Shown in pieces: positions 5,263-27,138 of a stretch of 64,000 nucleotides of DNA. The DNA is from Gemmatimonadota bacterium (GTDB lineage: Bacteria; Gemmatimonadota; Gemmatimonadetes; Palauibacterales; Palauibacteraceae): assembly GCA_022825725.1 (NCBI GenBank), contig JAJDWE010000033.1, forward strand, positions 87,926-151,925. The letters run 5' to 3'. A model generated the notes under the pieces. It saw only the letters and a program-made list of their open reading frames with translations, did no database searches and was not told the DNA's origin. The position numbers and the translations under genes are program-made. The stretch's first letter is position 1. The number at the start of each line of letters is the position of its first letter.

Positions 5263-6684
5263 TCATCGGTCGGCGGCCTCCTCCAGCATGGCGTCCAGGG
5301 CGGTTCGGTCGAACCATTCGCCCCGCCGCACGACGCCCGCGATGCGTCGCGTGTTGCCGATCGCCTGCAACGGATTGCCCTCCAGCAGCACGAGGTCGGC
5401 CGGACTGCCCGCCACCACCATGCCGGCACCCTCCTCCCGTCCGAGGAAGCGGGCCGGGTTGACCGTGGCGCTACGCAGCGCCTCGTACGGTGAGAGACCC
5501 GCGGAGACGAGTTCCTCAAGTTCCCGATGGAGGGCGAAACCCAACGGCGGCGTGTCCGTGCCGGCCATCACGGAGGCGCCGGCGGCCACAAGGGCGCGGA
5601 TCAGGGAATCCGCCACCGCGAAACCATCCATCGCGGCCTCGAAGTCGCCCGCCGTGAAGTTGCTCATCCACGGGATCGACATGCGCTCGGTGTAGAAGCG
5701 GCGCATGTCATCCGTCATGTGCGATGCCTCTTCCGTGGCGAGATAGGCGTCGACCAGGCGGTCCGGCTTGTGGATCATGCGGACCGAGAGCGTCGGCACG
5801 TTCCACGAACCGGCCTCCAGGGTACGCTGCGCGAGCGCCGGAATTCGCGAGAGGTCCCCGTATGCCCAGGCGAGCGTTCGCGATCGCAGGTCGGGGCCGG
5901 GTTGGGCCGGCGCGTCGTCGGGCACGAGGTGCCAGATGTAGCCACGAAGGTGTTCGATGCTGGCTTGACCGGCCGCGAAGGCGCCATCGAGCCCCACCTC
6001 GAACGGAATGTGCCCGGCCACGGGGATGCCGAGTCCGCGCGCCTCGGCGACGATGCCGCGGTAGGCCGCGGCAGGCACGTTGTTGTAGACCTTGATGAAG
6101 TCGTATCCGGCCGCGTGCTGCTCCCGCACGACACGGGCGCCGTCGAGGCTGTCGCGCACGATTGCGCGCCCTGCCGTGTCGATGACGGCGGCGAACTCCG
6201 GTGGCGGCAACCCCTCGACGATGGGGCCCGCCGTGCGGATGTCCGGTCCGGCCAGTTCGCCGCTGCGGACGCTGTCGCGGAAGTCGAGCGTATGGGGGCC
6301 GCCCGAGAGGATGCGCACGCCGGTCACGCCTGTGGCCAGGAACCTCGCGAGCGCCCATGCCTCCCGGAAGTGGACGTGCATGTCGTTGAGCCCCGGGATG
6401 AGGAAGCGACCGCCGGCATCGACTCGCATGGCGTCCTCGGGGACATTCGCGGCGGCCGACGACTCGACTGCGAGCACGCGTCCGCCGCCGATCAGGACGG
6501 TCATGCCGGGGAGGACGCGCTCGCCGTCCATCGGGATGACCGAGACGTCCTCTATCGCCAGCGTCACCCGCGCGGGAGCCGATCCGGCGTCGGGGCTGCA
6601 GGCCAGGAGCGACGCCAGCACCGGAAACCCCACGGCCAGGGACACGTGGCGGCGGAGCATCATGGCCGCGACCGGAACGCTCAT
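5263..6684 (-). CDS. Amidohydrolase-superfamily metal-dependent hydrolase, lipoprotein.
   Basis: Lipoprotein signal MSVPVAAMMLRRHVSLAVGFPVLASLLAC. DMHVHF (HxH metal ligands), GVTGVR, a later H and the C-terminal VMAGTDTP motif are typical of the amidohydrolase fold. Confidence 0.75.
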   Translation of the reverse strand: MSVPVAAMMLRRHVSLAVGFPVLASLLACSPDAGSAPARVTLAIEDVSVIPMDGERVLPGMTVLIGGGRVLAVESSAAANVPEDAMRVDAGGRFLIPGLNDMHVHFREAWALARFLATGVTGVRILSGGPHTLDFRDSVRSGELAGPDIRTAGPIVEGLPPPEFAAVIDTAGRAIVRDSLDGARVVREQHAAGYDFIKVYNNVPAAAYRGIVAEARGLGIPVAGHIPFEVGLDGAFAAGQASIEHLRGYIWHLVPDDAPAQPGPDLRSRTLAWAYGDLSRIPALAQRTLEAGSWNVPTLSVRMIHKPDRLVDAYLATEEASHMTDDMRRFYTERMSIPWMSNFTAGDFEAAMDGFAVADSLIRALVAAGASVMAGTDTPPLGFALHRELEELVSAGLSPYEALRSATVNPARFLGREEGAGMVVAGSPADLVLLEGNPLQAIGNTRRIAGVVRRGEWFDRTALDAMLEEAADR

Positions 6685-6845
6685 CTGTCTCCATCTGCTG
6701 CTGACGGCCGGAATCGAATGCCGATTCACACTACGTGATGTTCGGAGAGGGGTCACGCCCCGATGAGATGCCGCGCACCTGTCGAGGGCGGCGGCGTTCG
6801 TCCGCCGCTGATGCTCCGCCCGCGGGTCGACGCTAGATTGGACAT

Positions 6846-9260
6846 ATGCACCCGCACGAACTGACGCCCGCACAGCGCGCGGCCGCCGAAGATCCGGACC
6901 GGCTTCCGAGGCTCGCCGACGCCGAGTTCACGGCGCTGGGCCGCCGCGCGCGCCGCGTAGAAGGGCTGCGCAAGTCGACCGGCCGCGAGATCTACACGGA
7001 CGACATCGTCCTGCCGGGGATGCTGCACGGGAAGATCCTCCGCTCCACGGAGGCGCACGCCCGGATCGTGTCCATCGACTCGGCCGAAGCCGAGGCCCTC
7101 GAAGGCGTGCACGGCGTCATCACCGGGCGGGATCTGCCGACGCCGTACGGGATCATCCCATGGACCCGCGACGAGCACGCGCTCTGCGTCGACAAGGTGC
7201 GTTTCATCGGCGACGCGGTGGCGGCGGTGGCGGCCGTCGACGAGGACACGGCGAACACGGCGCTCGAGCGGATTCACGTCGAGTACGCGCCGCTTCCCGT
7301 CTATCTCTCGCCGGAGGAATCGCTGACGCCCGAGGCCGCCGCGGAGCCCATCCACGCGCCTCGCAAGCCGGGGGCGAACGGCAACATCCTCAAGCACGTC
7401 CACCTCGAGTTCGGGGACGTGGACGCGCACATGGCGGAAGCGGACGTCACCATCGAGGGGGAGTACTTCTTCCACGGGACGACGCACACGCCGATCGAAC
7501 CCCACTGCGCGATCTCCCGACTCAACCCGGATGGCGTGCTCGAGGTGTGGTCCTCGACGCAGGTTCCGCACTACCTGCAGCGGGAGCTGGCGCGGGTGCT
7601 CGACCACGACGTGGCGAAGGTGCGGGTCGCGCAGCCGGCCGTGGGCGGGGCCTTCGGCGGCAAGTCCGAGCCATTCGATCTCGAGTTCTGCGTCGCGCTC
7701 CTCGCGATGCGGACGGGCCGTCCGGTGAAGATCCTCTACACGCGCGAAGAACTCTTCTACTCGCACCGCGGCCGCCACCCCATGCGCATGAAGTACCGGC
7801 TCGGCGCCTCGCGCGGCGGGAAGCTTCGGGCGCTCGACGCCCACACGATCCTGGACGGCGGCGCCTATGCCTAGTTCGGCCTCGTGACGACGTACTACTC
7901 GGGACAGCTCCTCACCGCGCCCTGCCATATCGAGTCCTACCGTTTCGACTCGACGCGCGTGTACACGAACGTCGCCCCGTGCGGCCCCAAGCGCGGCCAC
8001 GGTTCCGTGCAGCCGCGCTTCGCGTACGAGATCTCGCTCGACAAGCTGGCCGGGAAGCTCGGCCTCGACCCGTTCGAACTCCGTCGCCGCAACTTCATGG
8101 GCACGGGTCGGACGGTAAACGAGTTCAAGGTCCGGTCGAACGGTTTCCTGGAGTGCCTGGAGGCAGTCGAGCGGGCCAGCGACTGGAAGACACGCTACAG
8201 GCGGCTGCCGACAGGTCGCGGCCTCGGGATGGCCGCCTCCTCCTACATCTCCGGCACGAACTACCCCATCTATCCGAACGAGATGCCCCAGGCCGCGGTG
8301 CAGGTGCAGATCGAGCGCTCCGGCCGGGTGGCGATCCTGCACGGCGCCTCGGAGATCGGGCAGGGTTCCGATTCCACCATGGCCTATATCGCGTGCGAGG
8401 AACTCGGCGTCCCGCTCGAATACGTGCGCGTTTTCTCCGCTGACACGGACCTCACGCCGGTGGACCTGGGGGCCTACTCCTCGCGCGAGACCGTGATGGT
8501 GGGAAACGCCTGTCTCGAGGCCTGCCGCGCGCTTCGAGCGCAGGTGACGGAGGCGGTCGGGGAGGTCTGGGGCGTGGCGGCCGGCCGGGTGCGTCTGGCG
8601 CGGGGCTGGGCCTTCGACGTCGAAACCGCGGAGGACTCCGACCGCCGCATCCCTCTCTCGGAGGCGTTCAACATCGCCGAGGCGAAGTTCGGCCTGCTGG
8701 GCGCGGTCGGCTCCTACGACACGCCGAAGGATGTCCACGGCGAGTACCGCGGCGGCACGATCGGATCGTCGCCCGCCTATTCCTTCACGGCGCACGTGGC
8801 CGAAGTCGAGGTCGAAGAGGACACGGGGGTCGTCGACGTGAAGGACATCTGGGTGGCGCACGACTGCGGCCGCGCGCTCAATCCCGTGCTCGTCGAAGGC
8901 CAGATCGAGGGCTCCGCCTACATGGGATTCGCGGAGGCGATCTTCGAGGAACAGCTCTTCCGCGAGGGAGAGGTGGAGGGAGGGCTGCACACGTCGCCGT
9001 CGCTGCTGGACTACCGGATCCCCACTTCCATGGACTGCCCCGAGTTCGAGGCGCTCATCGTCGAGTCGGTGGATCCGGAAGGCCCCTACGGCGCGAAGGA
9101 GGCGGGGGAGGGCCCGCTCCACCCCTCGCTCCCCGCGATCGCGAACGCGATATACGACGCGGTGGGAGTGAGGATCGACGAGCTCCCGTTCACGCCGCAG
9201 CGCGTGTGGAGGACCCTGCGCGCGCACGCCGCCGCCGCGAGCCGCGAGGACGTGGCCTGA
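6846..9260 (+). pseudogene. Xanthine dehydrogenase / aldehyde oxidase / CoxL-family molybdopterin-binding large subunit, interrupted by a single in-frame TAG at 7872..7874.
   Basis: ORFs 6846..7874 and 7884..9260 are in the same frame (both coordinates mod 3 = 0). Together they make one collinear Mo-hydroxylase large subunit: a/b-hammerhead N-domain, then ...ILDGGAYA*FGLVTTYYSGQ..., then the MoCo domains with GSVQPRFAYE, AEVEVEEDTGVVDVKDIWVAHDCGRALNP and EAGEGPL. No adjacent 2Fe-2S or FAD subunits are present. Confidence 0.8.
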
Positions 9261-9704: not shown

Positions 9705-11207
9705 GTGCGTAAGGCAGGGCGGATCGCGCGAAAGCCCGGCTTCCGGGCATTCGCGGCGCTCGCCGTCGCCTCGGCCGCGGCGTGCGGCGACGGGAGCATG
9801 GAACTGCCGCTGACGCGGCCGCCGATGGTCATCGGCGCCGTGGCCGACCTCGACCTGGCCGTGGGGGACACGGCGACGGTGGAGGCCTCCGGCTACTTCC
9901 GCGATCCCGACGGAGACGTTCTCTCTTTCGAGTCGAGGTCGTCAGCCGAGGAGGTCGCGGTCGCCGACGTCTCGGGGAGCACGGTCCGCATCATCGCACT
10001 GGCGCCGGGGACGTCGACGGTGGCGATCACGGCGCGCGACCCGGAAGGGCGAGCCGCCGCGCTGCGCTTCGAGGTTACCGTGCCGAATCGGGCACCCTTG
10101 GCCGTGGGCGCGATCCCGGACCTCAGGTTGGCCGCGGCGGATACGGCACGGGTGGAGGTGTCGGGCTATTTCGCCGATCCGGACGGGGAAGCGCTCGGCT
10201 ATGGCGTGGCCTCTTCGGACAGCGGGGTGGCGGCCGTCGCCGCTCGGGGCGACACGATCGACGTGATCGGCGTCGCTCCGGGAACCGCGACCGTGACGGT
10301 GACGGCGCGCGACGCGGGAGGCCTCTCGGCCGAAAGCTCCTTCACCGTGCGCGTCCGGGCATCAGGGGGCGGCTTCGACATCGTGCTCGACTTCGACACC
10401 ACAGCGACGGCGCCGCGGCGGGCCGCGGTCCTCGCGGCGGCGGAACTCTGGATGTCGGTGCTGGCCGACACGGAGCTGCCGGCCGTGACGGTCGACGACC
10501 ACATCGAATGCTACGGAGCGAACACGACGGAGCCGGTGGGGACCATCGATGATCTGATGGTTCTCGTCGAGTTCCGGGATATCGACGGTCCGGGCCGCAC
10601 GTTCGCCCAGGCCGGCGTGTGCCGTCTGCGCGAAGAATCGATGCTGCCGTTCGCCAGCGTGGCGTTCTTCGACGTGTCGGACTTCGACGGCCTCATCGAC
10701 TCCGGCGATGCGATGGAACTCGCCGTTCACGAAATCGCGCACGCGCTCGGGTTCGGCCTGCTGTGGCGCCCCCTCGGCCTCCTTCGGGATCCTGCCCTGG
10801 GCGTGGGAGCGATCGACGCGCACTTCGTCGGTCCCCTGGCCATCGCCGCCTTTGACGCAGCGGGCGGCACGGCCTACACGGGCGGGGCCAAGGTCCCCGT
10901 CGAGAACCTCGGCGGAGCCGGGAGCGCGAACCTCCATTGGCGGGGGTCCGTCCTTGGCCGCGAACTCCTGAGGCCGCTCAACAGGATCGGCGTGCCGGAG
11001 AGCTTCAGCGCGATCACGATCCAGTCGATGGCCGATCTGGGTTACATTGTCGATGTGAGCCTGGCGGAGCCGTACAGGCTTCCCGGCGCCGACGCCGCGG
11101 ACGCGAAACCCGACCGCGTGGTCGACCTGGGCGACGATGTCCTCAGGGGTCCGGTGCAGGTCTTCGACCCGCGGGGACGCCTGGTGAGGGTGCTGCACAA
11201 TCGCTAA
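9705..11207 (+). CDS. Secreted lipoprotein zinc metalloprotease, leishmanolysin-like (M8-like metzincin), with two N-terminal tandem Ig/cadherin-like domains.
   Basis: GTG start. Lipobox LAVASAAAC. Two repeats of about 90 aa (PxxVGAIxDLxLAxxDTAxVExSGYFxDPDG...). The catalytic region contains HEIAHALGFG (HExxHxxGF), as in leishmanolysin/GP63 peptidases. Confidence 0.65.
   Translation: MRKAGRIARKPGFRAFAALAVASAAACGDGSMELPLTRPPMVIGAVADLDLAVGDTATVEASGYFRDPDGDVLSFESRSSAEEVAVADVSGSTVRIIALAPGTSTVAITARDPEGRAAALRFEVTVPNRAPLAVGAIPDLRLAAADTARVEVSGYFADPDGEALGYGVASSDSGVAAVAARGDTIDVIGVAPGTATVTVTARDAGGLSAESSFTVRVRASGGGFDIVLDFDTTATAPRRAAVLAAAELWMSVLADTELPAVTVDDHIECYGANTTEPVGTIDDLMVLVEFRDIDGPGRTFAQAGVCRLREESMLPFASVAFFDVSDFDGLIDSGDAMELAVHEIAHALGFGLLWRPLGLLRDPALGVGAIDAHFVGPLAIAAFDAAGGTAYTGGAKVPVENLGGAGSANLHWRGSVLGRELLRPLNRIGVPESFSAITIQSMADLGYIVDVSLAEPYRLPGADAADAKPDRVVDLGDDVLRGPVQVFDPRGRLVRVLHNR
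9816..10365. repeat. Tandem intragenic repeat of about 270 bp (two copies) encoding duplicated Ig-like domains of the metalloprotease.
   Basis: Protein-level repeat aa 38-128 versus 129-218, with conserved DL.LA..DTA.VE.SGYF.DPDG and GT.TV.ITARD blocks. Confidence 0.55.
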
Positions 11208-16867: not shown

Positions 16868-19480
16868 ATGACAATGGCTCTCGACAGTATCCGGGGCGTC
16901 GTGCTCCTTGCGCTCTTCATCGCGATGGCCGCCGGCCTGCCGGCGAACGGTTCCGGCCAGAGCGCGATCGCGGTTCCGCGCTTCGAGATCGCGTCCTCGC
17001 CGATCGAACTCGCCGGACCCGTGCGTCCCGGCGAGTATCTCGGCGTCACCGGGCCCCGGTCCGCGTGGCTGGGGGTCGAGACGGGCGAAGCGGAACTGTG
17101 GGTCCATCCCCTCAAGGTCGGGAACCGTTTCCGGCTCGGCTTCTCGACGCCGGCCTACGGGACGCCGATTCCGGGAGACGAGGTCGCGCGCACCGTGCGG
17201 GTGCGGCCCGAACTCACGACGATCACCTACAGCCACGCGGCCTTCCAGGTGCGCCAGCACATCCTCGCACCGGCCGACCTCCCCGGCCTTCTGCTCCTGC
17301 TCGACGTGGACAGCCCGGAACCGCTCGAGATCATCGCGGAGTTCGAGCCCGTGCTGAACTATATGTGGCCGGGTTCGATCGGCGGGCAGTACGCCTACTG
17401 GGACGCCCCCCGCCGCGTCTTCGTGCTCTCCGAGAGCCTGCAGGAGACGAACGCCGTCGTCGGCTCGCCGTGGGCCGTGAACTCGGTGGAACACCCGGCT
17501 CATCAACTGGGCGAGGCGCCCCGCACCATGGTGATCCCAGTCGACCCGGAGCGCGCGGGGCGGGAGTTCATCCCGATCGCGGTTGCGGGCGGTACGATGC
17601 CCCGCGAGGAGGTCTTCGCCAGCTACGAACGGTTGATCGCCGAGGCGCGCTCGCTCTACGACGCGAAGCGGGCATGGGCCGACTCGGTGCTCGCCTCCAC
17701 CGTCTCCATCGATTCGCCGGATCCGCGGCTCGATCTCGCCCTCGAGTGGGCGAAGATCAACCTGGAGGAGCAGCGCGTCTGCAACCCCGACCTCGGGTGC
17801 GGGTTCGTCGCCGGGTGGGGCCACTCCCGCAACGGAACCCGTCCCGGCTTCGGCTGGTTCTTCGGCGGCGACGCCGCGCAGACCATGTTCGCCATGGAGG
17901 CGCTCGGGCAGTGGGAGCTGGTGGCGGAGGAACTCGCCTTTCTCGCGAGGTACCAGCGCGATGACGGCAAGATCACGCACGAAATCTCCCAGGCGGCCGC
18001 GCGCATCCCGTGGTTCGATGTGTACCCGTACGCCTACTACCACGCCGACACGACGCCCTACTGGATGGTCGCCCTTTACGAGTACTGGCGGGCGAGCGGC
18101 GACGACGACCTCCTGCGTGAACTGTGGCCGGCGTACCGGCGCGCCTGGGCGTGGTGCCTCACCGCCGAAACGGACGGGGACGGGATCATCGAGAACACCG
18201 TGGGTGGGCTCGCGGCGGTCGAGGTCGGCGGCCTCGGGGCCGCGCTCCACCAGGATATCTACCTGGCGGGGATCTGGGTGGCGGCGCTTGAAGGGACGAT
18301 GGCGTTGGCCGAACACATGGGCGACGCCGGGATCGTGGGCCGGGCGCGGGAACTCGCGCCCCGTGCGCGCGCGACCCTGAACGATGCCTACTGGCTGGAC
18401 GACCCGGGACACCATGCCTTCGGGATCCTCGCCGACGGCGGAACCAACGACAACCTCACCGTGTGGCCCGCCACAGCGGCGGCGTTCGGCCTGTTCGACG
18501 AGGCCCGCGCGCGATCGACCCTCGCCCACCTCGCGAGCGACCGGATCTCGTCGGACTGGGGCGCGCACATGCTCTCGACGGAGAGCGAACTGTATCACCC
18601 GCTCCAGTACAACATGGGAACGGTATGGCCCTTCGTGACGGGATACGTGTCGTGGGCGCAGTACCGGTATCGGCGTCCGTGGGCCGGCTTCCATCTCGTG
18701 GACGCTGTGAAGCAGATGACGTTCGACTGGAGTCTGGGCCGACATCCGGAGCTGCTGTCCGGAACGTTCTACGAGCCCCTCGACCAGACCGTCCCCCACC
18801 AGTTCTTCGCGACGTCGGCCCTGGTGACACCGCTGCTGCGCGGCGTCATCGGCTGGGAACCCGATGCGCCGCTGGACCGCGTGCGCCTCGCCCCGCAACT
18901 CCCGCCGGACTGGCCGGCCATGACGGTGAGACGGCTCCGAGCCGGGGAAACGACGACGGACGTGGAGATCCGACAACGGTGGACGGCGGAAGGCGGGGAG
19001 CGACGGACGACGCTCACGACCACGGGGCCTGCGCTGACGTTCGCGTTCGTACCCGACGTGCCGGCGGGCGCGCGGGACGTATCCATCACCGTGAACGGCG
19101 TAACCACCGAACTCACCGAGGATGGAACGGTGGAGATGAGGCTGGGCGAGACCGGCGCTGCGGACGATCGCGCGGAGATCGTCGTGACATGGAATGGCGG
19201 ACTCGCGATCGCACCGCCCCGAATCGACCTCGAACCGGGCCAAAGGAGCAGCGGCCTGCGCATCCTCGACTTCAACGCAGATCCGGATGGCTGGCTTCTC
19301 GAAGTGGAGGGGCTGCCGGGTCGGAGCTACGACCTCGGAATCTTCGGCGCCACGGTCGAAGCTGACGTCGTGCAAGGGGCCGCAACGACAGCCCTGGTTA
19401 ACCCCGCGACCGTACGTATTGCGTTTCCTCCCGACACTGCGAAACGCACGACAGCTGTGGTTCGTTTCACGACCCCGTAA
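16868..19480 (+). CDS. Secreted large glycoside-hydrolase-like protein, (alpha/alpha)6-barrel, glycogen-debranching-enzyme/GH63/GH116-like.
   Basis: Signal peptide MTMALDSIRGVVLLALFIAMAAG. The middle region has FGWFFGGDAAQTMFAMEALGQWEL and later WPFVTGYVSWAQY-type aromatic-rich barrel motifs, as seen in GDE_C/GH63-like barrels. The family assignment is tentative. Confidence 0.5.
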   Translation: MTMALDSIRGVVLLALFIAMAAGLPANGSGQSAIAVPRFEIASSPIELAGPVRPGEYLGVTGPRSAWLGVETGEAELWVHPLKVGNRFRLGFSTPAYGTPIPGDEVARTVRVRPELTTITYSHAAFQVRQHILAPADLPGLLLLLDVDSPEPLEIIAEFEPVLNYMWPGSIGGQYAYWDAPRRVFVLSESLQETNAVVGSPWAVNSVEHPAHQLGEAPRTMVIPVDPERAGREFIPIAVAGGTMPREEVFASYERLIAEARSLYDAKRAWADSVLASTVSIDSPDPRLDLALEWAKINLEEQRVCNPDLGCGFVAGWGHSRNGTRPGFGWFFGGDAAQTMFAMEALGQWELVAEELAFLARYQRDDGKITHEISQAAARIPWFDVYPYAYYHADTTPYWMVALYEYWRASGDDDLLRELWPAYRRAWAWCLTAETDGDGIIENTVGGLAAVEVGGLGAALHQDIYLAGIWVAALEGTMALAEHMGDAGIVGRARELAPRARATLNDAYWLDDPGHHAFGILADGGTNDNLTVWPATAAAFGLFDEARARSTLAHLASDRISSDWGAHMLSTESELYHPLQYNMGTVWPFVTGYVSWAQYRYRRPWAGFHLVDAVKQMTFDWSLGRHPELLSGTFYEPLDQTVPHQFFATSALVTPLLRGVIGWEPDAPLDRVRLAPQLPPDWPAMTVRRLRAGETTTDVEIRQRWTAEGGERRTTLTTTGPALTFAFVPDVPAGARDVSITVNGVTTELTEDGTVEMRLGETGAADDRAEIVVTWNGGLAIAPPRIDLEPGQRSSGLRILDFNADPDGWLLEVEGLPGRSYDLGIFGATVEADVVQGAATTALVNPATVRIAFPPDTAKRTTAVVRFTTP

Positions 19481-19520
19481 GCGAGAGTCTGCTGCCCGCC
19501 GCTCCGCAACGCCTGAATAT

Positions 19521-19543
19521 CGCCAAATTGTCGTCATTTGGCG
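19521..19543. terminator. Perfect 8-bp stem hairpin CGCCAAAT-tgtcgtc-ATTTGGCG in a locally lower-GC convergent intergenic region. A second hairpin GTCGATTC-N10-GAATCGAC lies at 19698..19723.
   Basis: Read directly. It lies between the convergent 3' ends of the GH-like gene (19480) and the lysJ/argD operon (19747). No T-tract follows, so it is an intrinsic-terminator candidate only. Confidence 0.3.
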
Positions 19544-19746
19544 GTTGCCTGTCGCCCCAAAGTCGCATACGATCAGCTATCACATGAGTGCGAGTGGGGA
19601 TTGGGCGGTGTCCACGTGATCGCAAGGCTCGTGGCGACCTCCTCGGCTCGGCATAGCGCCGTCCAGTCCCCTCTCCACACACGAATTCCGGGATCCAGTC
19701 GATTCGGGCATCCGGGAATCGACGATCCGACGGCTCCCGGTCGGCG

Positions 19747-20901
19747 TCAGTCGGCCAGTACTTCCGTCAGCGTATCCGCCACCTCGTCGATCTGTGCTTC
19801 GGTGATCACGAGCGGCGGCAGCAGCCGGATGACCGTGGTGCCGGCCGGGAGGGCGAGGACGCCCCGCTCCGCGAGAGCTCCCAGGTGGGGTCGGCAGCGC
19901 TCGCGGAGTTCGACGCCGATCATGAGGCCCACCTGCCGCACGGCGCGCACGCGAGCCGACTGGCGTCGGGCGAAACGCTCGCTGAAGCGGGCGCCCAGCG
20001 CCTCCGCCCGATCGTCGAGCCGCTCATCCCGCATGAAGCGGATCGCGGCCAGGGCGGCGGCGCTGGCGAGCGGATTGCCGCCGAAGGTCGTGCCGTGCTG
20101 CCCGGGCGGCGGCTGCAGCCGTTCATGCGCCAGGACCGCTCCCAGCGGCACGCCGCCCGCGATCGCCTTCGCGAGGCAGAGCACGTCCGGCGCGACGCCG
20201 TAGCGGTCGCAGGCGAACATGCGGCCGGTGCGGCAGAAGCCCGTCTGGATCTCGTCGAACACGAGGACCGCACCGGCCTCGTCGCAGATGCGGCGCGCCG
20301 CCGACAGATAGTCCTGGCTGGCCGGCCGCACCCCGCCCTCTCCCTGCACCGGTTCGATGATGACCGCCGCCGTGTCCTCGTCCACGGCCGCGCGCAGTTT
20401 CTCGACGTGGTTGAACGGCACGAACGAGAACCCGGGCACGAGGGGCTCGAACGGTTCCCGGTACTGTTTTTTATGCGTCGCGCTCAGCGCACCCAGCGTT
20501 CGCCCGTGGAAGCCGCGCATGGCGGACACGACCCCCGCCCGTCCCGTTGCGAGGCGCGCGAACTTGATCGCCGCCTCCACCGCCTCCGCCCCCGAATTGC
20601 AGAGGAAGGCGCGCGTGAGCCCCGCCGGCGCGATCGAGACGAGTTCGGCCAGCAACCGCGCCCGGACATCGTTGTAGAAGATCCCGGGACAGGACACGAG
20701 GACCCGAGCCTGCTCCGCCAACGCCTCGGCGACGGCCGGGTTGGCGTGGCCGATGCTCGCCACGCCGATGCCGCCGACGCAGTCGATATAGCGGCGACCC
20801 TCGTCGTCCCACACGCACGCGCCCTCGCCCCGCACGACCGCGATGTCGCGCTTCGGGAACACCTCGAGCGCATACTCCCGCTCCGTCTCGCGCGCGTTCA
20901 T
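19747..20901 (-). CDS. argD/lysJ: Class III PLP aminotransferase, acetylornithine / [LysW]-aminoadipate-semialdehyde aminotransferase (ArgD/LysJ).
   Basis: Start MNARETEREYALEVF. Motifs include DCVGGIGVASIGHANP and DEIQTGFCRTG, plus the Lys in CLAKAIAGG. Its 4-bp overlap with the upstream lysZ stop indicates translational coupling. Confidence 0.85.
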   Translation of the reverse strand: MNARETEREYALEVFPKRDIAVVRGEGACVWDDEGRRYIDCVGGIGVASIGHANPAVAEALAEQARVLVSCPGIFYNDVRARLLAELVSIAPAGLTRAFLCNSGAEAVEAAIKFARLATGRAGVVSAMRGFHGRTLGALSATHKKQYREPFEPLVPGFSFVPFNHVEKLRAAVDEDTAAVIIEPVQGEGGVRPASQDYLSAARRICDEAGAVLVFDEIQTGFCRTGRMFACDRYGVAPDVLCLAKAIAGGVPLGAVLAHERLQPPPGQHGTTFGGNPLASAAALAAIRFMRDERLDDRAEALGARFSERFARRQSARVRAVRQVGLMIGVELRERCRPHLGALAERGVLALPAGTTVIRLLPPLVITEAQIDEVADTLTEVLAD

Positions 20902-21710
20902 CCGATGACCGTACCCCGTCCGGCCAGCGCCTCCGTGACCGGATGTTCGACGCACCCGTCCGCGATCACCACGCGCGTCGTGCCGGACTCCGCGACTCGC
21001 CGCAGGGCGAGCAGTTTGCGCTTCATGCGCCCGCGTGCCTCGCTCTCGCGACGCGCCAGCTCCGCGCGCCCGAGCCGTGCGACGACCGACGCCGGATCGT
21101 CAGGGTCCGCCAGGAATCCGGGCGCCTCGATCAGCTGGATCACGCAGTCCGCTCGCAATTCGTCGCTCAGCAGGGTCACGACGTCATCGTTCTCCGAGTT
21201 GATCGCCACGTTGTGCTCGTCGATGAGGGGCACGGTGACCACCGGCGTGAACCCGCCATCGAGGAGCAACGCCAGCAGCTTGCGGTTCACCTCCACCGGT
21301 TTCCCGGACAGGTCCCGTTTGATCAGCGTCTTGCCGCCCTCCCTCACCCGGATGCCCCGGTTGCGGCGACCGCGCACGAGCGCGCCGTCGAGCCCGGTGA
21401 GCCCGACCGCGTTCACGCCCTGGCCCTGCAGCAGTTCCACGATGCGCTTGTTTCGCAGGCCCGCGTAGGCCATGAGCATCACGTCGATCAGGTCGCGGTC
21501 GGAGTGTACACTCTCCTGTCCGGACACGGACGTGAGGATGCGCTTCTCGACCCCGAGCCTCCGAGCCAGCGAATCGCGCAGCGCGTTCGCGCCGTGCACG
21601 ATGACGAACGGACCGGACAAGCCCGCGAGGTCGCGAGCGATCCCCTCGAGATTGATGGATTCTCCGCCGCCGATCTTGACGAGAAGCAGCCCGTCGGATT
21701 CGCCCGGCAT
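20898..21710 (-). CDS. lysZ/argB: Short-form amino acid kinase, [LysW]-aminoadipate / acetylglutamate kinase (LysZ/ArgB).
   Basis: 270 aa. LLLVKIGGGESINLEG...FVIVHGAN...GLTGLDGALV has the AAK-family glycine-rich motifs, and the length is typical of LysZ. Confidence 0.85.
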   Translation of the reverse strand: MPGESDGLLLVKIGGGESINLEGIARDLAGLSGPFVIVHGANALRDSLARRLGVEKRILTSVSGQESVHSDRDLIDVMLMAYAGLRNKRIVELLQGQGVNAVGLTGLDGALVRGRRNRGIRVREGGKTLIKRDLSGKPVEVNRKLLALLLDGGFTPVVTVPLIDEHNVAINSENDDVVTLLSDELRADCVIQLIEAPGFLADPDDPASVVARLGRAELARRESEARGRMKRKLLALRRVAESGTTRVVIADGCVEHPVTEALAGRGTVIG

Positions 21711-21713
21711 CGG

Positions 21714-22370
21714 TCAGAACGTCCCGATGGCGCGGTTGGCCACCGGCGTCCAGGCCCCCCGCCCGTCCGAAGCCGGATAGGGCGCCGAGCACAGAATCCG
21801 CACGCCGTTCCGCCGGGCGGCATGCATCCGGAAGTAGTCCGGGTCCTCGTTGAATCGGGTCGCGAAGTGGACCCGCCGCGACGCGTCGGCGATGATCAGA
21901 TTCATCGCCCGCACGTAACGGGTACGCTTCTCGATCGCATTGAGTCCCCGCTCCAGAGCACGGCCCATGTCTCCATCATCGAAACGCTTGACGAAGTTGA
22001 ACACCTTCTCCGCGCCGATCCGCCCCCGTTCCTTGATCCGCACTCCGTGCAGCTCCCCGTTGAAGATGAACGCGCGTTCCCCGTCGAAGAACGGCATGTT
22101 GTTCTCGATCCGTATCCCCTCTCCGCGATACGCGCTCCTCGCGTGCGCGAGCAGAAGCCTAGTGCGCCCGGGCGGCGCCGCGCCGTCCTCCCACACCGGC
22201 GAGATGTTGCGGTAGACGCGCCACCCGTCGGACCCGTCGGCATCGATCCAGGCGCACCCCCACCCGTCGCCCTGATACTCGGGACTCTCTCGGGCGAGCT
22301 GCGCGAAGGCGGCGAGGTGCGGCTCCATGTCGAAGGGCTCGTCGCTGCGGACGCAGAGGATGCGGCACAC
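21714..22370 (-). CDS. Class II glutamine amidotransferase-like Ntn hydrolase (YafJ/EgtC-like, N-terminal Cys2 nucleophile), embedded in the LysW operon.
   Basis: Begins MCRILCVRS (Met-Cys nucleophile). DGWGCAW, LLLAHARSAYRGEGIRIENNMPFF and FIFNGELHG match the YafJ-type GATase-II pattern. It lies 3 nt from the lysZ start and 25 nt from the lysY stop. Confidence 0.8.
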   Translation of the reverse strand: MCRILCVRSDEPFDMEPHLAAFAQLARESPEYQGDGWGCAWIDADGSDGWRVYRNISPVWEDGAAPPGRTRLLLAHARSAYRGEGIRIENNMPFFDGERAFIFNGELHGVRIKERGRIGAEKVFNFVKRFDDGDMGRALERGLNAIEKRTRYVRAMNLIIADASRRVHFATRFNEDPDYFRMHAARRNGVRILCSAPYPASDGRGAWTPVANRAIGTF

Positions 22371-22395
22371 GAGGATTCAGCTCCGCGTGTCGCGG

Positions 22396-23418
22396 TCAGG
22401 CCGGATGCAGCCCGGGGAACTCGAGGCCCCGCGACTCCGGCAACCCGTGCATCACGTTGAACGCCTGCACCGCCTGTCCCGCCGCTCCCTTCATGAGATT
22501 GTCGATCGCGCTCAGGACGACGACCCGGCTCGAGAGCGGATCGCGCTCGAACCCCACGTCACAGTAGTTCGCGCCCGCCAGGAGGTTGGGGTCGGGATAG
22601 CGGTGGATGCCGCTCCGCTCCTTGACGATGCGTACGAACGGTTCGTCGGCGTACGCGCTCCGATAGATCTTCCACAACGCCTTCTCATCGAGATCCCGGT
22701 TCAGGAATACATGACAGGTGGCGAGGACGCCGCGCACCATTTCAACCGCCGTCGCAGAGAAATGCACGTCGCCGCCGAGCACTGCGGCGATCTCGGCCGC
22801 GTGGCGGTGGCCCGTCGGCCGATACGACCGCATGGCGCCGCTGCGCTCCGGGTGGTGGCTGCCCTCGCTGGCGCGGTTCCCGGCCTCGCTCGATCCCACC
22901 TTCACCTCGATCACGACCGAGTCCGCGACCCCCTCCCGGTACAGCGGCAGAAGCCCGAGGATGGAAGCCGTCGCGTTGCAGCCCGCGCACGCGACGAGAT
23001 CCGCGGCCGCCAGCGCCTCGCGGTTCACCTCCGCGATCCCGTACACGAACGATCCCAGGAGTTCCGGCCGAGGGTGCGGCCGGCCGTAGAAGCGCTCGTA
23101 GTCGGCCCCGTCCTCGAGCCGGAAGTCCGCGCCCAGGTCGACGATCCGCCCCGCCAGAGACCGGAACTCGTCGATGCGGCGGGACGATTCCCCGTGCGGG
23201 AGACAGAGGAAGAGCACGTCGCACTCCGACAGCTCCTCGAGCGCGCTGAAGCGCAGTCGCGTGACGCCGCGCAGGTTGGGATGGACCCGGGGCGCGAACC
23301 GTCCCGCGAAGCGCTCCGATGTGATCTGCCGCACCTCGACGTCGGGATGGCCGAGCAGGAGCCTCAACAGTTCCCCGCCGGCGTAGCCCGAGCCGCCCGC
23401 GATCGACGCGCGGATCAT
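22396..23418 (-). CDS. argC/lysY: N-acetyl-gamma-glutamyl-phosphate / [LysW]-aminoadipyl-phosphate reductase (ArgC/LysY).
   Basis: [21 protein letters not shown] (NAD(P)-binding), active-site Cys in [15 protein letters not shown]-terminal [16 protein letters not shown]. Confidence 0.85.
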
Positions 23419-24263
23419 CGGTCCGCCGCCCGGTCCGGCGAGACGACGTAGGACACGATCCTCTCCGGAATGTTCACGCCGGTCGCCTCGATGCTATTCC
23501 GGAACTCCATCGTGTAGTTCACCTCGTTGACCAGCAGTTCCCCCCCGCTCTCCAGCAGATCCACCGCGACCACGCCCCCGCCCATGGCGGCCGCCGCCCG
23601 CAGGGACAGCTCCGCGATCTCGCTCGTCACCGGACAGTTCGAGGCCGTTCCGCCGCGGGCCGTATTCGTGATCCAGTGCTCGGACGACCGGAAGATGGCC
23701 GCCACGCAGTCGTCTCCGACGACGAACGCGCGGATGTCGCGCCCGCCCTTCTCGACGTACTTCTGCACGAAGAAGATCGAGTGATGATAGCTGCCCAGGA
23801 TCGCCTTGTGTTCGAGGACCGTCTCCGCCGCGTGCCGGTCGTTGATCCTCGACAGCAGGCGGCCCCAGGAGCCGACCGCGGGCTTGAGGACCACGGGATA
23901 ACCGAGTTCCTCAATGGCCTCGAGCGCGGACTCCTCGGTGAACGCGACCCTGGCCTCGGGCTGCGGCACGCCGCATTCCTGGAGCGACGCCGCGGTGAGG
24001 ATCTTGTCTCCGCAGCGGCGCGACACCTCGTAGCGGTTCACGCAATCGAGACCGGCCCCCTCGAAAAGTCGCAACGCGTGCATGGCCCGCGAGTGGTTGA
24101 TGCAGCGCTCGAGAACGACGTCGACGTCCGGGACGTTCCGGAAATCGAACGCGAGTTTGCGGTCGTCCAGAAACACCAGTTCGACGTCGCCGCGCCCGCG
24201 CAACTCCGCGATCAGCAGCTTCTCGTCCTTGCGGATGAGGGAATGAAGAAAGCCGACTCTCAT
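23415..24263 (-). CDS. lysX: RimK-type ATP-grasp ligase LysX/ArgX (ligates substrate to the gamma-carboxyl of the LysW C-terminal Glu).
   Basis: Start [24 protein letters not shown]-grasp motifs ([54 protein letters not shown]). 4-bp ATGA overlaps with lysW upstream and lysY downstream. Confidence 0.85.
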
Positions 24264-24424
24264 TCGCCCCAGTCCTCCTCCGCGTCCGGCGCCTCTCCAA
24301 GGGTGATGGGGTCGAGGGCGAGGATCTCGAGTTCGACGCCGCACTCCTCGCATTCGAGCAACTCACCCTCGACGGGGTCGTCGGAAATCGTCGGTTCCGC
24401 GCCGCATACAGGACATTCCGGCAT
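24260..24424 (-). CDS. lysW: Amino-group carrier protein LysW (54 aa, zinc-finger N-terminus, C-terminal EDWGE).
   Basis: Own translation of the minus strand: [54 protein letters not shown]. It has the CPxCG...CxxCG zinc ribbon and ends in ...EDWGE, the LysW hallmark. It is below the ORF-track size cut-off. GAGG lies about 9 nt upstream of the ATG. Confidence 0.85.
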
Positions 24425-24475
24425 GCCGTCCATCCTCAATCTGGGGTTCTTTGCAGGGGAAGAAACTTGGTACCG

Positions 24476-25180
24476 TCAGTCCGCCGCCGGGTTCCGGAAA
24501 GGAAGCCGCAGCGCCAGGAAAAGCACGATGGCCACGGGTTCCACGAGCAGAATGTACCACGGCCAGCCCGGGAAGACGTCCAGTATCGATGCGGTCGGCG
24601 GCTTGTCGATGAGATACAGGTAGTTGGACCCGAGTACGCGGTTGATGGGATATACCGCGACGGCGTACACGTTCAGCAGCCCGAGCGCCAGCCATGGATC
24701 GCGCGCCTTCGGCCGGTAGTCCTCCACCGTCACCGCCCACACGCCCGCGATGACGGCGATTCCGTGAGACGCCATCGTCTCGTAGAAGGCGAAATGGAGA
24801 ACGCCGTGGGACGCATCGGGTGTCAGCACGGCCTGAACGGCCCCCGCGACGCCGAAGAAGTACATGAGCCGAAGGGTCCAGAGGTGCCGCGTCCACAGCC
24901 CGTACACCGTCAACCAGGCCATCGCCGCGCACAGGTGCAGCGGGAGGTCGTTCTGCAGGGTCCATAGCCCCACCGAGGCTTTCCACGTGTGCCTGAGGGC
25001 GAGGAGGAGCACGATCGCAGCGCCCATGGCGAAGCGTAGGCGGCGGCGCCGATCCTCGTCGCCAGTCATGCCTGCCCGGATCAGACAGACTCCGATCGCG
25101 ACCAGCACGCCCATCGTCACGAGATGGACCGGACCGAAGAGATCCAGCGGTACCGACTCCGTCCCGAAGAACCCGCCCAT
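24476..25180 (-). CDS. Integral membrane protein (YwaF/TIGR02206-like, unknown function).
   Basis: 234 aa, about 7 TM helices, conserved LPLHLC motif. The function is unknown and the family assignment is tentative. Confidence 0.45.
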   Translation of the reverse strand: MGGFFGTESVPLDLFGPVHLVTMGVLVAIGVCLIRAGMTGDEDRRRRLRFAMGAAIVLLLALRHTWKASVGLWTLQNDLPLHLCAAMAWLTVYGLWTRHLWTLRLMYFFGVAGAVQAVLTPDASHGVLHFAFYETMASHGIAVIAGVWAVTVEDYRPKARDPWLALGLLNVYAVAVYPINRVLGSNYLYLIDKPPTASILDVFPGWPWYILLVEPVAIVLFLALRLPFRNPAAD

Positions 25181-25224
25181 GTCAGGCTGTCATGCTGCGC
25201 GGGCCGGCCGGACGCGCCACGGGT

Positions 25225-27138
25225 TCACGCATCCGCGTCCGCGAGGGAGGAGGTGGGGATCTCCGGACCCTCCACCCGCCGTCCATCCCGCAGCGTCACG
25301 TACGCCTCCATGGCGTAGTAGGCCGGCAGGCCCAGAGCGGCGAGCCGGTTGGCGGTATCCCGGTTTCGTTCGACGACGCGCTGCCAGAATTCGCGCGGAT
25401 CCGGACCGGGGAAGGGAGCCAGATCCTTCTGCGTTTCGTGCCGGAAGATCGCCTGGACCTTGCCGCGCAGTTCGCCTTCGGAGAGCGGCACGAGGACGGT
25501 GGCTTCGTCCAGACTCCACTCCTGCCAGGCGCCGCGGTAGAGCCAGAGCCACGGGGGGTCGCCGCGGTAACCGGCGAGCGCCGCATCCACCGTCTCGAGG
25601 CACATGCGGTGCGTGCCGTGCGGATCGGACAGGTCCCCGGCGGCGAACACGATCGTCGGCCGCACCTGCTCCAGCAGCTGCGCGACGATCTCCACGTCCT
25701 CCGACGTGATCGGGTTCTTCTTCACCGCTCCCGTCTGATAGAACGGCTGGTTCAGAAAGCGGGCGCGGTCGGCGGAGAGCCCCAGCGATTCGATCGCGGC
25801 CGTGGCCTCCGTCTCGCGGATGATCCGCTTGAGTTGTTGAACCACGCCGGGATCGACGTCCCCCGGCTCCTTGCGGGCGAGCCGGTCCTCGAGAGACCGC
25901 AGCAGCTCCCCGAGGCTTGCGGCGTCGCCAAGGTCGATGACGCCGGCCGCGCGCCGCAGGAAGTCCAGGTACCGGCGCACCTCGTGGTCGAAGACGGCGA
26001 TGTTCCCGGACGTCTGATATGCCACGGTGACGTGGTTGCCGTTCTCGACGAGCTTGCGCAGCAGGCCGCCCATCGAGATCACATCGTCGTCCGGGTGGGG
26101 CGAGAAGACGACGATGTTCTGGCCGCGCGGCAGCCGGCTCTTGCCCCGGATCTTGGAGATGAGCGCGTTGAAGACCTGTCCGTTGAGCGGTTCGGCCGAA
26201 CCGTGCCGGGAGGTGAGCGGGGCGAGGTGGTTGGCGCGATAGTCGTCGGTCGCGAGGTGCAGGATCGACTTGTCGATGCGTTCGCTCAGCCAGATGACGG
26301 CCGCGGTCTCGCGCTCCGCCGTCCACTCCACATCGCCCACGAGCCACGGCGTGCGGACGCGGGTGAGATCGGAAGCGGCGGCCGGATCGAGATAGACCGT
26401 CGCGGCGGCGTGTTGCTGCAGAAAGGTCGCGGCGACATCCGCGTGGACCTCCCCCTCGACGGCTCGACGCACGATCCCGGCCTTGTGTTCGCCCGTCGCG
26501 AGCAGCACGACTTCCCGCGCTTCGAGAATCGTGGCCACGCCCATCGTGATCGCCTGCGGCGGCACGTTCTCCTCGCCGAAGAAATCGGACGCGGCATCGC
26601 TCCGGGTGACGGTGTCCAGGTAGAGCCGCCGGGTGCGGGAGTCGCGCTCGGACCCCGGCTCGTTGAAGCCGATGTGACCGCTGCGCCCGATCCCGAGAAT
26701 CTGGAAGTCGATCCCGCCCGCCAGCCGGATTCGGCGCTCGTACTCGACGCAGTGCGCCTCGACCTCCGCTTCCGGCACGTCACCTCGAGGGATGTGGCGG
26801 TGTTCCGCCGGGATGTTCACATGGTCGAACAGGTGCTCCCGCATGTAGCGGTGATAACTGTGCAGGCTGCCGGGCCGCATCGGGAAGTACTCATCGAGGT
26901 TGAAGGCGACCGCGTTGGAGAAGTCGAGTCCTTCGTCCCGATGCAGGCGGATGAGTTCCCGATAGACGCCGACGGGCGTGGCGCCGGTTGCGAGGCCGAG
27001 GACGACGGAGCGCCCGTTCTCCGCCCTCTCTCGCAGGAGCGCCGCGATCCGGCCCGCGACTTCGGCGGCGATGCTGTCGTGGTCCGGCATGATCCGGACG
27101 GGCACACGTTCCCTCCGCGCGTGTGCGGCGACGCTCAT
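25225..27138 (-). CDS. Glucosamine-6-phosphate deaminase (NagB) domain fused to a C-terminal LmbE/PIG-L-like deacetylase domain (long NagB-II type).
   Basis: N-half: LGLATGATPVGVYRELI...FNLDEY...GIGRSGHIGFNEPGS (NagB/6-phosphogluconolactonase fold). C-half: VVFSPHPDDDVISMGG (PIG-L/LmbE zinc-deacetylase motif). The start may be a few codons inside the listed ORF. Confidence 0.75.
   Translation of the reverse strand: MSVAAHARRERVPVRIMPDHDSIAAEVAGRIAALLRERAENGRSVVLGLATGATPVGVYRELIRLHRDEGLDFSNAVAFNLDEYFPMRPGSLHSYHRYMREHLFDHVNIPAEHRHIPRGDVPEAEVEAHCVEYERRIRLAGGIDFQILGIGRSGHIGFNEPGSERDSRTRRLYLDTVTRSDAASDFFGEENVPPQAITMGVATILEAREVVLLATGEHKAGIVRRAVEGEVHADVAATFLQQHAAATVYLDPAAASDLTRVRTPWLVGDVEWTAERETAAVIWLSERIDKSILHLATDDYRANHLAPLTSRHGSAEPLNGQVFNALISKIRGKSRLPRGQNIVVFSPHPDDDVISMGGLLRKLVENGNHVTVAYQTSGNIAVFDHEVRRYLDFLRRAAGVIDLGDAASLGELLRSLEDRLARKEPGDVDPGVVQQLKRIIRETEATAAIESLGLSADRARFLNQPFYQTGAVKKNPITSEDVEIVAQLLEQVRPTIVFAAGDLSDPHGTHRMCLETVDAALAGYRGDPPWLWLYRGAWQEWSLDEATVLVPLSEGELRGKVQAIFRHETQKDLAPFPGPDPREFWQRVVERNRDTANRLAALGLPAYYAMEAYVTLRDGRRVEGPEIPTSSLADADA

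Follow-up and report, generated by a model that had tools for sequence, protein, structure and literature searches.

Amino-group carrier proteins of the LysW type are small zinc ribbons with three or four cysteine residues, whose C-terminal EDWGE motif is recognised by the GSWGR motif of the partner ligase (PMC10433800). Here we describe a gene for such a carrier, lysW, and the operon that it heads, in a 64,000-nucleotide (nt) stretch of DNA from a bacterium of the Gemmatimonadota (Palauibacterales; GenBank assembly GCA_022825725.1, contig JAJDWE010000033.1, positions 87,926 to 151,925), the whole of which is referred to below as the window. Specifically, six tightly packed genes run along the minus strand of the window from 24424 down to 19747 and are, in order; lysW, lysX, lysY, a gene for an N-terminal nucleophile (Ntn) hydrolase-like protein, lysZ and lysJ. 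The junctions between lysW and lysX, lysX and lysY, and lysZ and lysJ are ATGA overlaps, suggesting translational coupling, while the other two gaps measure 25 and 3 nt. We are highly confident that 24260-24424 is a real lysW and the first gene of a six-gene carrier operon, with lysine as its most likely cargo.

The lysW gene (24260..24424 on the minus strand, stop included) starts with an ATG at 24424..24422, ends with a TGA at 24262..24260 and thus comprises 54 codons plus the stop, encoding a 54-amino acid (aa) amino-group carrier protein recognised by profiles, solved chains and conservation. A 54-codon lysW had been placed at these positions, strand unstated, by an earlier reading made by a model from the letters and a list of open reading frames (ORFs), which we call the sequence-only reading. 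Translation of 24260..24424 on the plus strand is meaningless, whereas the minus strand gives exactly the peptide quoted there, confirming the gene. Membership of the LysW family is demonstrated by two profiles, the comparison that the sequence-only reading had proposed. The curated NCBIfam LysW equivalog TIGR01206 scores 57.9 bits against a cut-off of 53.2 (E 6.7e-16) and Pfam PF21344 scores 56.1 bits against a cut-off of 27 (E 2.7e-15). A third model, NF041070 for the archaeal LysW/ArgW, is not reached (55.5 against a cut-off of 75 bits), which on its face counts against the assignment; however, as the protein is bacterial, the shortfall has no bearing on its membership of LysW.

The features of the protein are those of a carrier. 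It has the CxxC…CxxC zinc ribbon of LysW (C4, C7, C25 and C28), and its C-terminus reads AEEDWGE directly before the stop, with EDWGE aligning to the ends of the solved chains 3wwl_A, 5k2m_E and 3vpb_E. It aligns over its full length with LysW of Thermococcus kodakarensis (chain 5k2m_E, 9.5e-13) and of Thermus thermophilus (chain 3wwl_A, 2.9e-12), and the four cysteines and EDWGE match in both. With 18 aspartate and glutamate residues, no lysine, arginine or histidine, and a computed isoelectric point of about 4, its composition is in line with an acidic surface of the kind predicted to serve docking to the pathway enzymes.

The length of the ORF alone is uninformative, as the DNA is 69% guanine plus cytosine (GC) and 16 kb of it hold 101 ORFs of 40 aa or more; because short ORFs are so abundant, the weight for lysW comes from the profile E-values and from conservation. 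To collect related loci (given as L numbers), relatives of the adjacent ligase, LysX, were searched with one genome per species, giving 80 loci, and a second set of 80 metagenomic loci was collected with the 218-aa Ntn hydrolase-like protein as query; LysW ORFs were located by tblastn. A LysW ORF lies upstream of lysX in 78 of the 80 lysX-anchored loci, which come from Gemmatimonadota, Acidobacteriota, Gammaproteobacteria, Ignavibacteria/Bacteroidota, Binatia and others, and both CxxC…CxxC and EDWG are kept in every one of the 127 full LysW ORFs from related loci. In 42 gap-free lysW sequences, those of the window and 41 relatives, diversity at codon positions 1, 2 and 3 is 0.24, 0.18 and 0.56, and, of the codons that changed, 51% are synonymous when read in the lysW frame but 8-10% in the two remaining frames of that strand. 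This substitution pattern shows purifying selection, and the conservation in syntenic loci on which the sequence-only reading had staked its gene is thus borne out.

The plentiful short ORFs are also the one observation favouring the opposite account, in which the lysW ORF is a chance open frame and a longer overlapping ORF the true gene. That ORF (23911..24366, minus strand, GTG start, 151 aa) lies in another frame and overlaps both lysW and lysX. Its GC content at the three codon positions (0.75/0.73/0.47) runs opposite to that of real genes; the surrounding genes have 0.85-0.90 at the third position (GC3), and lysW itself 0.75/0.44/0.76. Within the overlap with lysW its frame has stops in 34 of the 41 relatives, and 10% of its changed codons are synonymous; the lysX frame, extended upstream to 24353, has stops in 40 of 41, whereas the lysW frame is without stops in all 41. 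The 151-aa ORF is therefore spurious and not a gene, in agreement with the sequence-only reading, and the profile E-values, the stops in relatives and the GC3 together rule out a chance open frame, leaving it a practically negligible probability.

The start of lysW can be placed with some assurance from the sequence around it. A Shine-Dalgarno-like GAGG, read directly in the sequence at 24434..24437 of the minus strand, stands 9 nt upstream of the ATG, and GGAGG is kept at the same spacing in the six closest loci (L001-L006). At the other end, the stop of lysW overlaps the start of lysX in an ATGA, GAATGAGAGTC, in which the lysX ATG is 24263..24261; both signals had been named for checking by the sequence-only reading and both are present. 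Two more in-frame starts, ATG 24433 and TTG 24439, lie upstream of the lysW ATG and hence the ORF listing gives 59 aa. As these upstream starts are not present in relatives outside the genus, and as the GAGG abuts ATG 24433, ATG 24424 is likely to be the start.

The second gene, lysX (23415..24263, minus), encodes an ATP-grasp ligase predicted to load the C-terminus of LysW. Its product scores 331.4 bits against a cut-off of 275.6 for TIGR02144, contains the LysX pre-ATP-grasp domain PF22626, matches Thermus thermophilus LysX (3vpd_A) at 3.6e-87 and has the GSWGR motif. It is followed by lysY (22396..23418, minus), whose start overlaps the lysX stop in an ATGA and whose product is an acyl-phosphate reductase of the argC family (TIGR01850, 376 bits against 233.6). 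Then comes the gene for the Ntn hydrolase-like protein of 218 aa (21714..22370, minus), which is like the class-II glutamine amidotransferases and EgtC and begins with a GTG start followed by Cys2. Three nt past its stop is the start of lysZ (20898..21710, minus), encoding a [LysW]-aminoadipate kinase of the amino-acid kinase family (NF010659, 238.9 bits against 223; PF00696). The last gene, lysJ (19747..20901, minus), encodes a class-III aminotransferase (PF00202, 379.9 bits; TIGR00707, of the argD subfamily, 439.8 against 410); its likely start is ATG 20901, which overlaps the lysZ stop in an ATGA, and the profiles align from residue 20 of the long ORF onwards. The structure of the operon is thus demonstrated. 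The one discordant score is that of the LysJ equivalog NF042418, for which the lysJ product reaches 480 bits against a cut-off of 700, and this weighs against a dedicated lysine operon.

The sequence-only reading had gone on to claim that, without lysW, the operon would be misread as an ordinary argBCD cluster. This does not hold, as the ligase scores as LysX and the kinase as [LysW]-aminoadipate kinase above the cut-offs given above. The claim that the gene is invisible to the ORF track stands in part; it is below the 60-aa cut-off, but it is hidden by that cut-off only, and NCBI already names the identical protein LysW. Specifically, an identical 54-aa protein is recorded as 'lysine biosynthesis protein LysW' in metagenome-assembled genomes (MAGs) of Gemmatimonadales and Candidatus Palauibacter, for example MDE2719228.1, MXX69866.1 and WP_420615385.1, and the closest genome locus is that of Candidatus Palauibacter sp. 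NZ_OZ244907.1, with a LysX identity of 97%. Moreover, the published KEGG Orthology (KO) table of the order already includes K05826, LysW (PMC10469786). The 'lysW' of a paper on lysine riboswitches (PMC5584792) is the unrelated name of a transporter. The lysW finding is correct but ordinary and already known; the potentially novel part is the occurrence of carriers ending in glutamine together with a conserved Ntn hydrolase, to which we return below.

Little around the operon bears on it. A scan of the whole window against Rfam at gathering thresholds gave no match, so neither a lysine riboswitch nor any other known RNA element was detected upstream of lysW, and a transfer RNA scan of the window found none. 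No site above chance came from a promoter and terminator consensus scan of 19400-25400; it returned one promoter-like site inside the gene upstream of lysW and one weak terminator-like site on the opposite strand. This upstream gene, for a TMEM164-related integral membrane acyltransferase (24476-25180, minus), ends 51 nt before lysW and is probably outside the pathway, as it is kept beside the operon only in the closest Palauibacter loci (L001-L006). The flanks of the window otherwise hold unrelated housekeeping, transport and peptidase genes, as judged by Pfam on 20 window ORFs between 3 and 41870. Among the flanking genes is one for a molybdopterin subunit of the xanthine dehydrogenase family (6846-9260, plus) with an in-frame TAG at 7872-7874, between LDGGAYA and FGLVTTYY; the MoCoBD_1 domain runs across this TAG (profile positions 6-169, then 178-244), and the split may mean that this is a pseudogene, or it may reflect an error in the sequence or read-through.

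The chemistry of the operon we infer from the characterised systems of Thermus and the archaea. By analogy with these, LysX would use ATP to join an amino acid, by its alpha-amino group, to LysW's C-terminal Glu54 at the gamma-carboxyl, LysZ would phosphorylate the LysW-bound substrate, LysY would reduce the phosphorylated, LysW-bound intermediate, LysJ would transaminate the tethered molecule and a hydrolase would free the product from LysW.

Among these systems, the window operon has parts in common with that of Thermus thermophilus, whose LysW (PDB 3wwl, 5ein) likewise has 54 aa, a four-cysteine zinc ribbon and EDWGE and aligns end to end with that of the window; the two LysX proteins have in common the GSWGR and F-I-T-NS motifs, and the kinase, reductase and aminotransferase are of the same families. 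The arrangement is different. In Thermus HB27 lysZ, lysY and lysX are adjacent (TTC1541-1543) with lysJ and lysK elsewhere (PMC3356886), whereas in the window lysJ is inside the operon; no counterpart of the Thermus LysK, an M20 [LysW]-lysine hydrolase, was found in the window, in the loci of close relatives or in the KO table of the genus; and the window operon has the gene for the EgtC-like Ntn hydrolase between lysY and lysZ. Equating this gene with the Thermus 'OrfF' is wrong, as OrfF is an old name for LysW and lysZ, lysY and lysX are adjacent in HB27. The best solved match of the window LysW is that of Thermococcus kodakarensis (5k2m_E), a bifunctional lysine and ornithine carrier with the same cysteines and EDWGE; however, the Thermococcus ligase has the motif Y-I-T-NA where the window has F-I-T-NS, and the window LysW falls below the archaeal model NF041070. 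A third point of comparison is the arginine-only ArgW/ArgX of Natrinema gari J7-2. Its ArgW has the same cysteines and EDWGE tail as the window LysW, with Glu54 essential; like the genus of the window, this haloarchaeon has carrier and diaminopimelate genes and no recognised aminoadipate-forming genes. Its ligase NgArgX differs in having a signature motif of its own that ends in Ala-Leu and in using glutamate only, and its system works with a hydrolase of the ArgE/LysK type, no Ntn hydrolase being reported.

The question of the cargo turns on the ligase. Five residues distinguish the characterised enzymes; F-I-T-NS is found in Thermus thermophilus LysX, which is strictly specific for aminoadipate, while Sulfolobus ArgX has I-Y-V-GF and the bifunctional enzyme of Thermococcus has Y-I-T-NA (PMC12998189), and the haloarchaeal ArgX has a further, distinct motif (PMC10433800). 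In the window LysX positions 180, 190, 201 and 256-257 (Thermus positions 182, 192, 203, 258 and 259) are F, I, T, N and S. The same F-I-T-NS is present in 74 of the 80 LysX relatives, the remaining six having F-V-T-NS, and the signature of glutamate-specific ligases, whether I-Y-V-GF or haloarchaeal, is not found in the window LysX. Since the window ligase has the Thermus-type motif, the cargo is probably alpha-aminoadipate, leading to lysine.

Related operons add to this at the level of the family. In operons of the Ignavibacteria/Bacteroidota type a homocitrate synthase-like gene, of the homocitrate/isopropylmalate synthase family, lies between lysW and lysX, which counts for lysine (L057 4783-5949, with equivalents in L034, L040, L042, L054, L061-L067, L123, L125, L127, L140, L151, L156 and L159). 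Its product scores below every curated cut-off (at best 338 bits against 517, and 337 against 413.6 for TIGR02146), and because of this automatic pathway calls may be missing it.

Several observations pull the other way. Across the 64 kb of the window, tblastn found no lysK and no homocitrate synthase-like gene, and the 20 window ORFs scanned with Pfam contain none of the aminoadipate-forming families. The gene content of the genus was taken from the published KO table of 48 Palauibacterales MAGs (PMC10469786, supplementary file 10), in which rows for homocitrate synthase, homoaconitase and homoisocitrate dehydrogenase are lacking, so speaking against a role in lysine alone; 2-aminoadipate transaminase appears in one MAG only, and that MAG is without LysW. 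The MAGs with K05826-K05830 have no argB (acetylglutamate kinase), argJ or argD, and only one of them has an argC call, while the LysW-positive MAGs have argF, argG and argH as well as asd, dapB, dapF and lysA (PMC10469786).

This pattern fits a glutamate-to-ornithine role, in which the carrier would act as an ArgW in arginine synthesis and lysine would be made by the diaminopimelate pathway, as in haloarchaea; Natrinema, with ArgW, the diaminopimelate pathway and no aminoadipate genes, is the precedent. In another Gemmatimonadota order, the Gaopeijiales, the same genes have been read as a 'LysW-L-glutamate pathway' to ornithine (PMC11651109), and Thermus LysZ and LysY are described as working on LysW-glutamate derivatives with about 60% and 15-20% of the activity that they show on derivatives of LysW-alpha-aminoadipate (PMC12998189). 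However, the F-I-T-NS of the window ligase is identical to that of Thermus LysX and unlike that of every characterised glutamate-loading ligase, KOfam assigns the ligase to K05827, and the KO table has no row for K19412 (argX). Ornithine could also arise through proA, proB and an ornithine aminotransferase, which are present in these MAGs. Moreover, a missing KO is weak evidence, as no curated cut-off is reached by the operon-linked homocitrate synthase-like protein of relatives.

The operons of relatives that do appear to be linked to arginine are informative here. A second LysX paralogue follows lysY in L051 (3781-4659), L052 (2587-3513) and L032 (7898-8800), and the motifs of this set begin with isoleucine (I-A-A-SC, I-A-A-GC and I-I-A-SS). 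The L051 operon also holds a homocitrate synthase-like gene and runs on into argG and an argH-like lyase (5876-8437), so that on its gene content it looks like a combined lysine and arginine carrier operon with two ligases. Related operons that include argG and argH thus carry a second ligase with another motif, suggesting that the F-I-T-NS ligase is not for arginine. Arginine use in this bacterial family appears to need the second ligase, which the window lacks, and we judge an arginine-only role unlikely.

An intermediate account, along the lines of Thermococcus and Sulfolobus, is that one set of LysW, LysZ, LysY and LysJ carries aminoadipate, for lysine, as well as glutamate, for ornithine. 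This would reconcile the aminoadipate-type motif with the gaps in argB, argC, argJ and argD in the genus, and it is compatible with the promiscuity of the downstream Thermus enzymes and with the finding that the single substitution F182I lets Thermus LysX load glutamate. Yet the window has a single ligase with the monofunctional Thermus motif, wild-type Thermus LysX is at least 10-fold poorer on glutamate than on aminoadipate and then in an overnight reaction only, and the relatives that seem to be dual have a second ligase. A dual role has, in our view, a slim chance of being correct.

Amino-group carriers are also known from natural product pathways, as in some actinomycete clusters, with Serratia mentioned in PMC11726168, so the carrier could in principle serve a secondary metabolite and not primary amino acid synthesis. 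A wealth of biosynthetic clusters in the genus, suggested by a species name only, would suit this. Against it, loci from many phyla repeat the order of the six genes and have no tailoring enzymes near, relatives link the operon to homocitrate synthase-like or argG and argH genes, and the window flanks are of the unrelated kinds described above. We regard a role of this type as highly improbable, and aminoadipate-to-lysine as the probable function of the window operon.

If the operon makes lysine on LysW, the last step calls for a hydrolase, and here the window departs from the characterised systems. With the bona fide LysK of one locus, L025, as tblastn query, no lysK was found in the window or in 79 of the first 80 loci, and the other 80 loci gave one weak match of 27%. 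The KO table of the order has no row for K05831 (lysK), while ArgE-like M20 proteins (K01438) are present in those genomes (PMC10469786) and could be serving as LysK in the genus.

What the operon does have is the 218-aa protein. Its score for PF13230, 22.1 bits, is just under the cut-off of 23, and for the EgtC model TIGR03442 it reaches 47.5 bits against a cut-off of 218.65, which is far below. An AlphaFold2 model (predicted local distance difference test score 86) has EgtC as its best solved fold, with an E of 1e-12 and a template modelling score of 0.73-0.76. EgtC (PDB 4zfj/4zfk/4zfl), the Ntn gamma-glutamyl amidohydrolase of ergothioneine synthesis, and the 218-aa protein would each be a class-II amidotransferase fold that stands alone, with no synthase domain, and they have in common the N-terminal cysteine and conserved arginine and Asn-Gly positions; in the 218-aa family R78 and N104-G105 do not vary, and Cys2 hardly does. 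However, the identity between the two is only about 21%, and the gene sits among lysWXY and lysZJ, not egt genes. On this modelled fold, the 218-aa protein appears to share the architecture and catalytic cysteine of EgtC, yet it is no EgtC orthologue.

Among the 80 loci found with the 218-aa protein, its gene sits between lysY and lysZ wherever both neighbours were captured, and it has the same place in most of the lysX-anchored loci, so that from gene order the Ntn hydrolase appears to be a constant part of this type of operon in many phyla. Its homologues form more than 3000 clusters, which NCBI names only 'hypothetical protein' or 'class II glutamine amidotransferase'. Literature searches on LysW and LysK in MAGs returned no paper giving the amidotransferase-like gene a function, and the GapMind 2026 preprint is without it.

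L025 is the one locus spanning lysW to lysJ without the Ntn hydrolase gene, and it alone has a bona fide lysK (9889-10953; NF003367, 372 bits against 363), directly after lysJ. The gene is likewise missing from L051 and L052, where the second ligase is in its place and no lysK was found. L025 is labelled Nanoarchaeota although its LysX is 70% identical to bacterial ones, and it may have been mis-binned, as may L077, which is labelled Methanosarcinales.

A second peculiarity concerns the carrier itself. In 30 of the 127 full-length LysW homologues the terminal motif is EDWGQ instead of EDWGE (L019, L026-L029, L031, L034, L037, L038, L041-L044, L048, L050-L052, L056, L058, L059, L062, L068, L074, L077, L078, L106, L120, L127, L128 and L133). 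Close relatives differ in this residue, for example glutamine in L074 and glutamate in L057, and therefore the switch between the two occurred more than once. The terminal glutamate, Glu54, is essential in ArgW (PMC10433800). A terminal glutamine, having no free gamma-carboxylate, would need to be deamidated before LysX could use it. A literature search on the strings EDWGQ and EDWGE returned no paper with either, though EDWGE is present in PMC10433800.

We tentatively propose that the EgtC-like Ntn hydrolase is the missing last enzyme, namely a cysteine gamma-glutamyl amidohydrolase that would free lysine or ornithine from LysW instead of LysK and would also convert the C-terminal glutamine of the carrier to glutamate. 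A single hydrolase of gamma-glutamyl amides acting at the C-terminus of LysW would explain release without LysK, the tolerated terminal glutamine and the strict synteny. This possibility is favoured by the gene order, the EgtC fold with Cys2, the arginine and Asn-Gly, the absence of lysK from the loci and the KO table, the pattern in L025 and the essential glutamate of ArgW. Set against it are the ArgE-like M20 proteins elsewhere in the genomes and the fact that the complementarity of LysK and Ntn hydrolase comes from a single locus; we would at present put its chances somewhat below even.

These observations have several consequences. For annotation, a 60-aa ORF cut-off hides a real and functionally important gene, and the arg-like genes beside it belong to a carrier protein pathway, as standard annotation already records. 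For the family, they describe a widespread type of LysW operon that, except in L025, has no lysK in its loci, has an Ntn hydrolase instead and often has a carrier ending in glutamine. If the hydrolase is indeed the enzyme of release and maturation, carrier-mediated amino acid synthesis would have two unrelated ways of completing its last step, and the hydrolase would fill a gap behind genome-based calls of lysine and arginine auxotrophy. As to leucine, the LysW-positive Palauibacterales MAGs have two copies of K00052 (leuB-like) and most are without leuA (K01649) (PMC10469786). The published predictions of lysine, arginine and leucine auxotrophy for the Palauibacterales may need revisiting.

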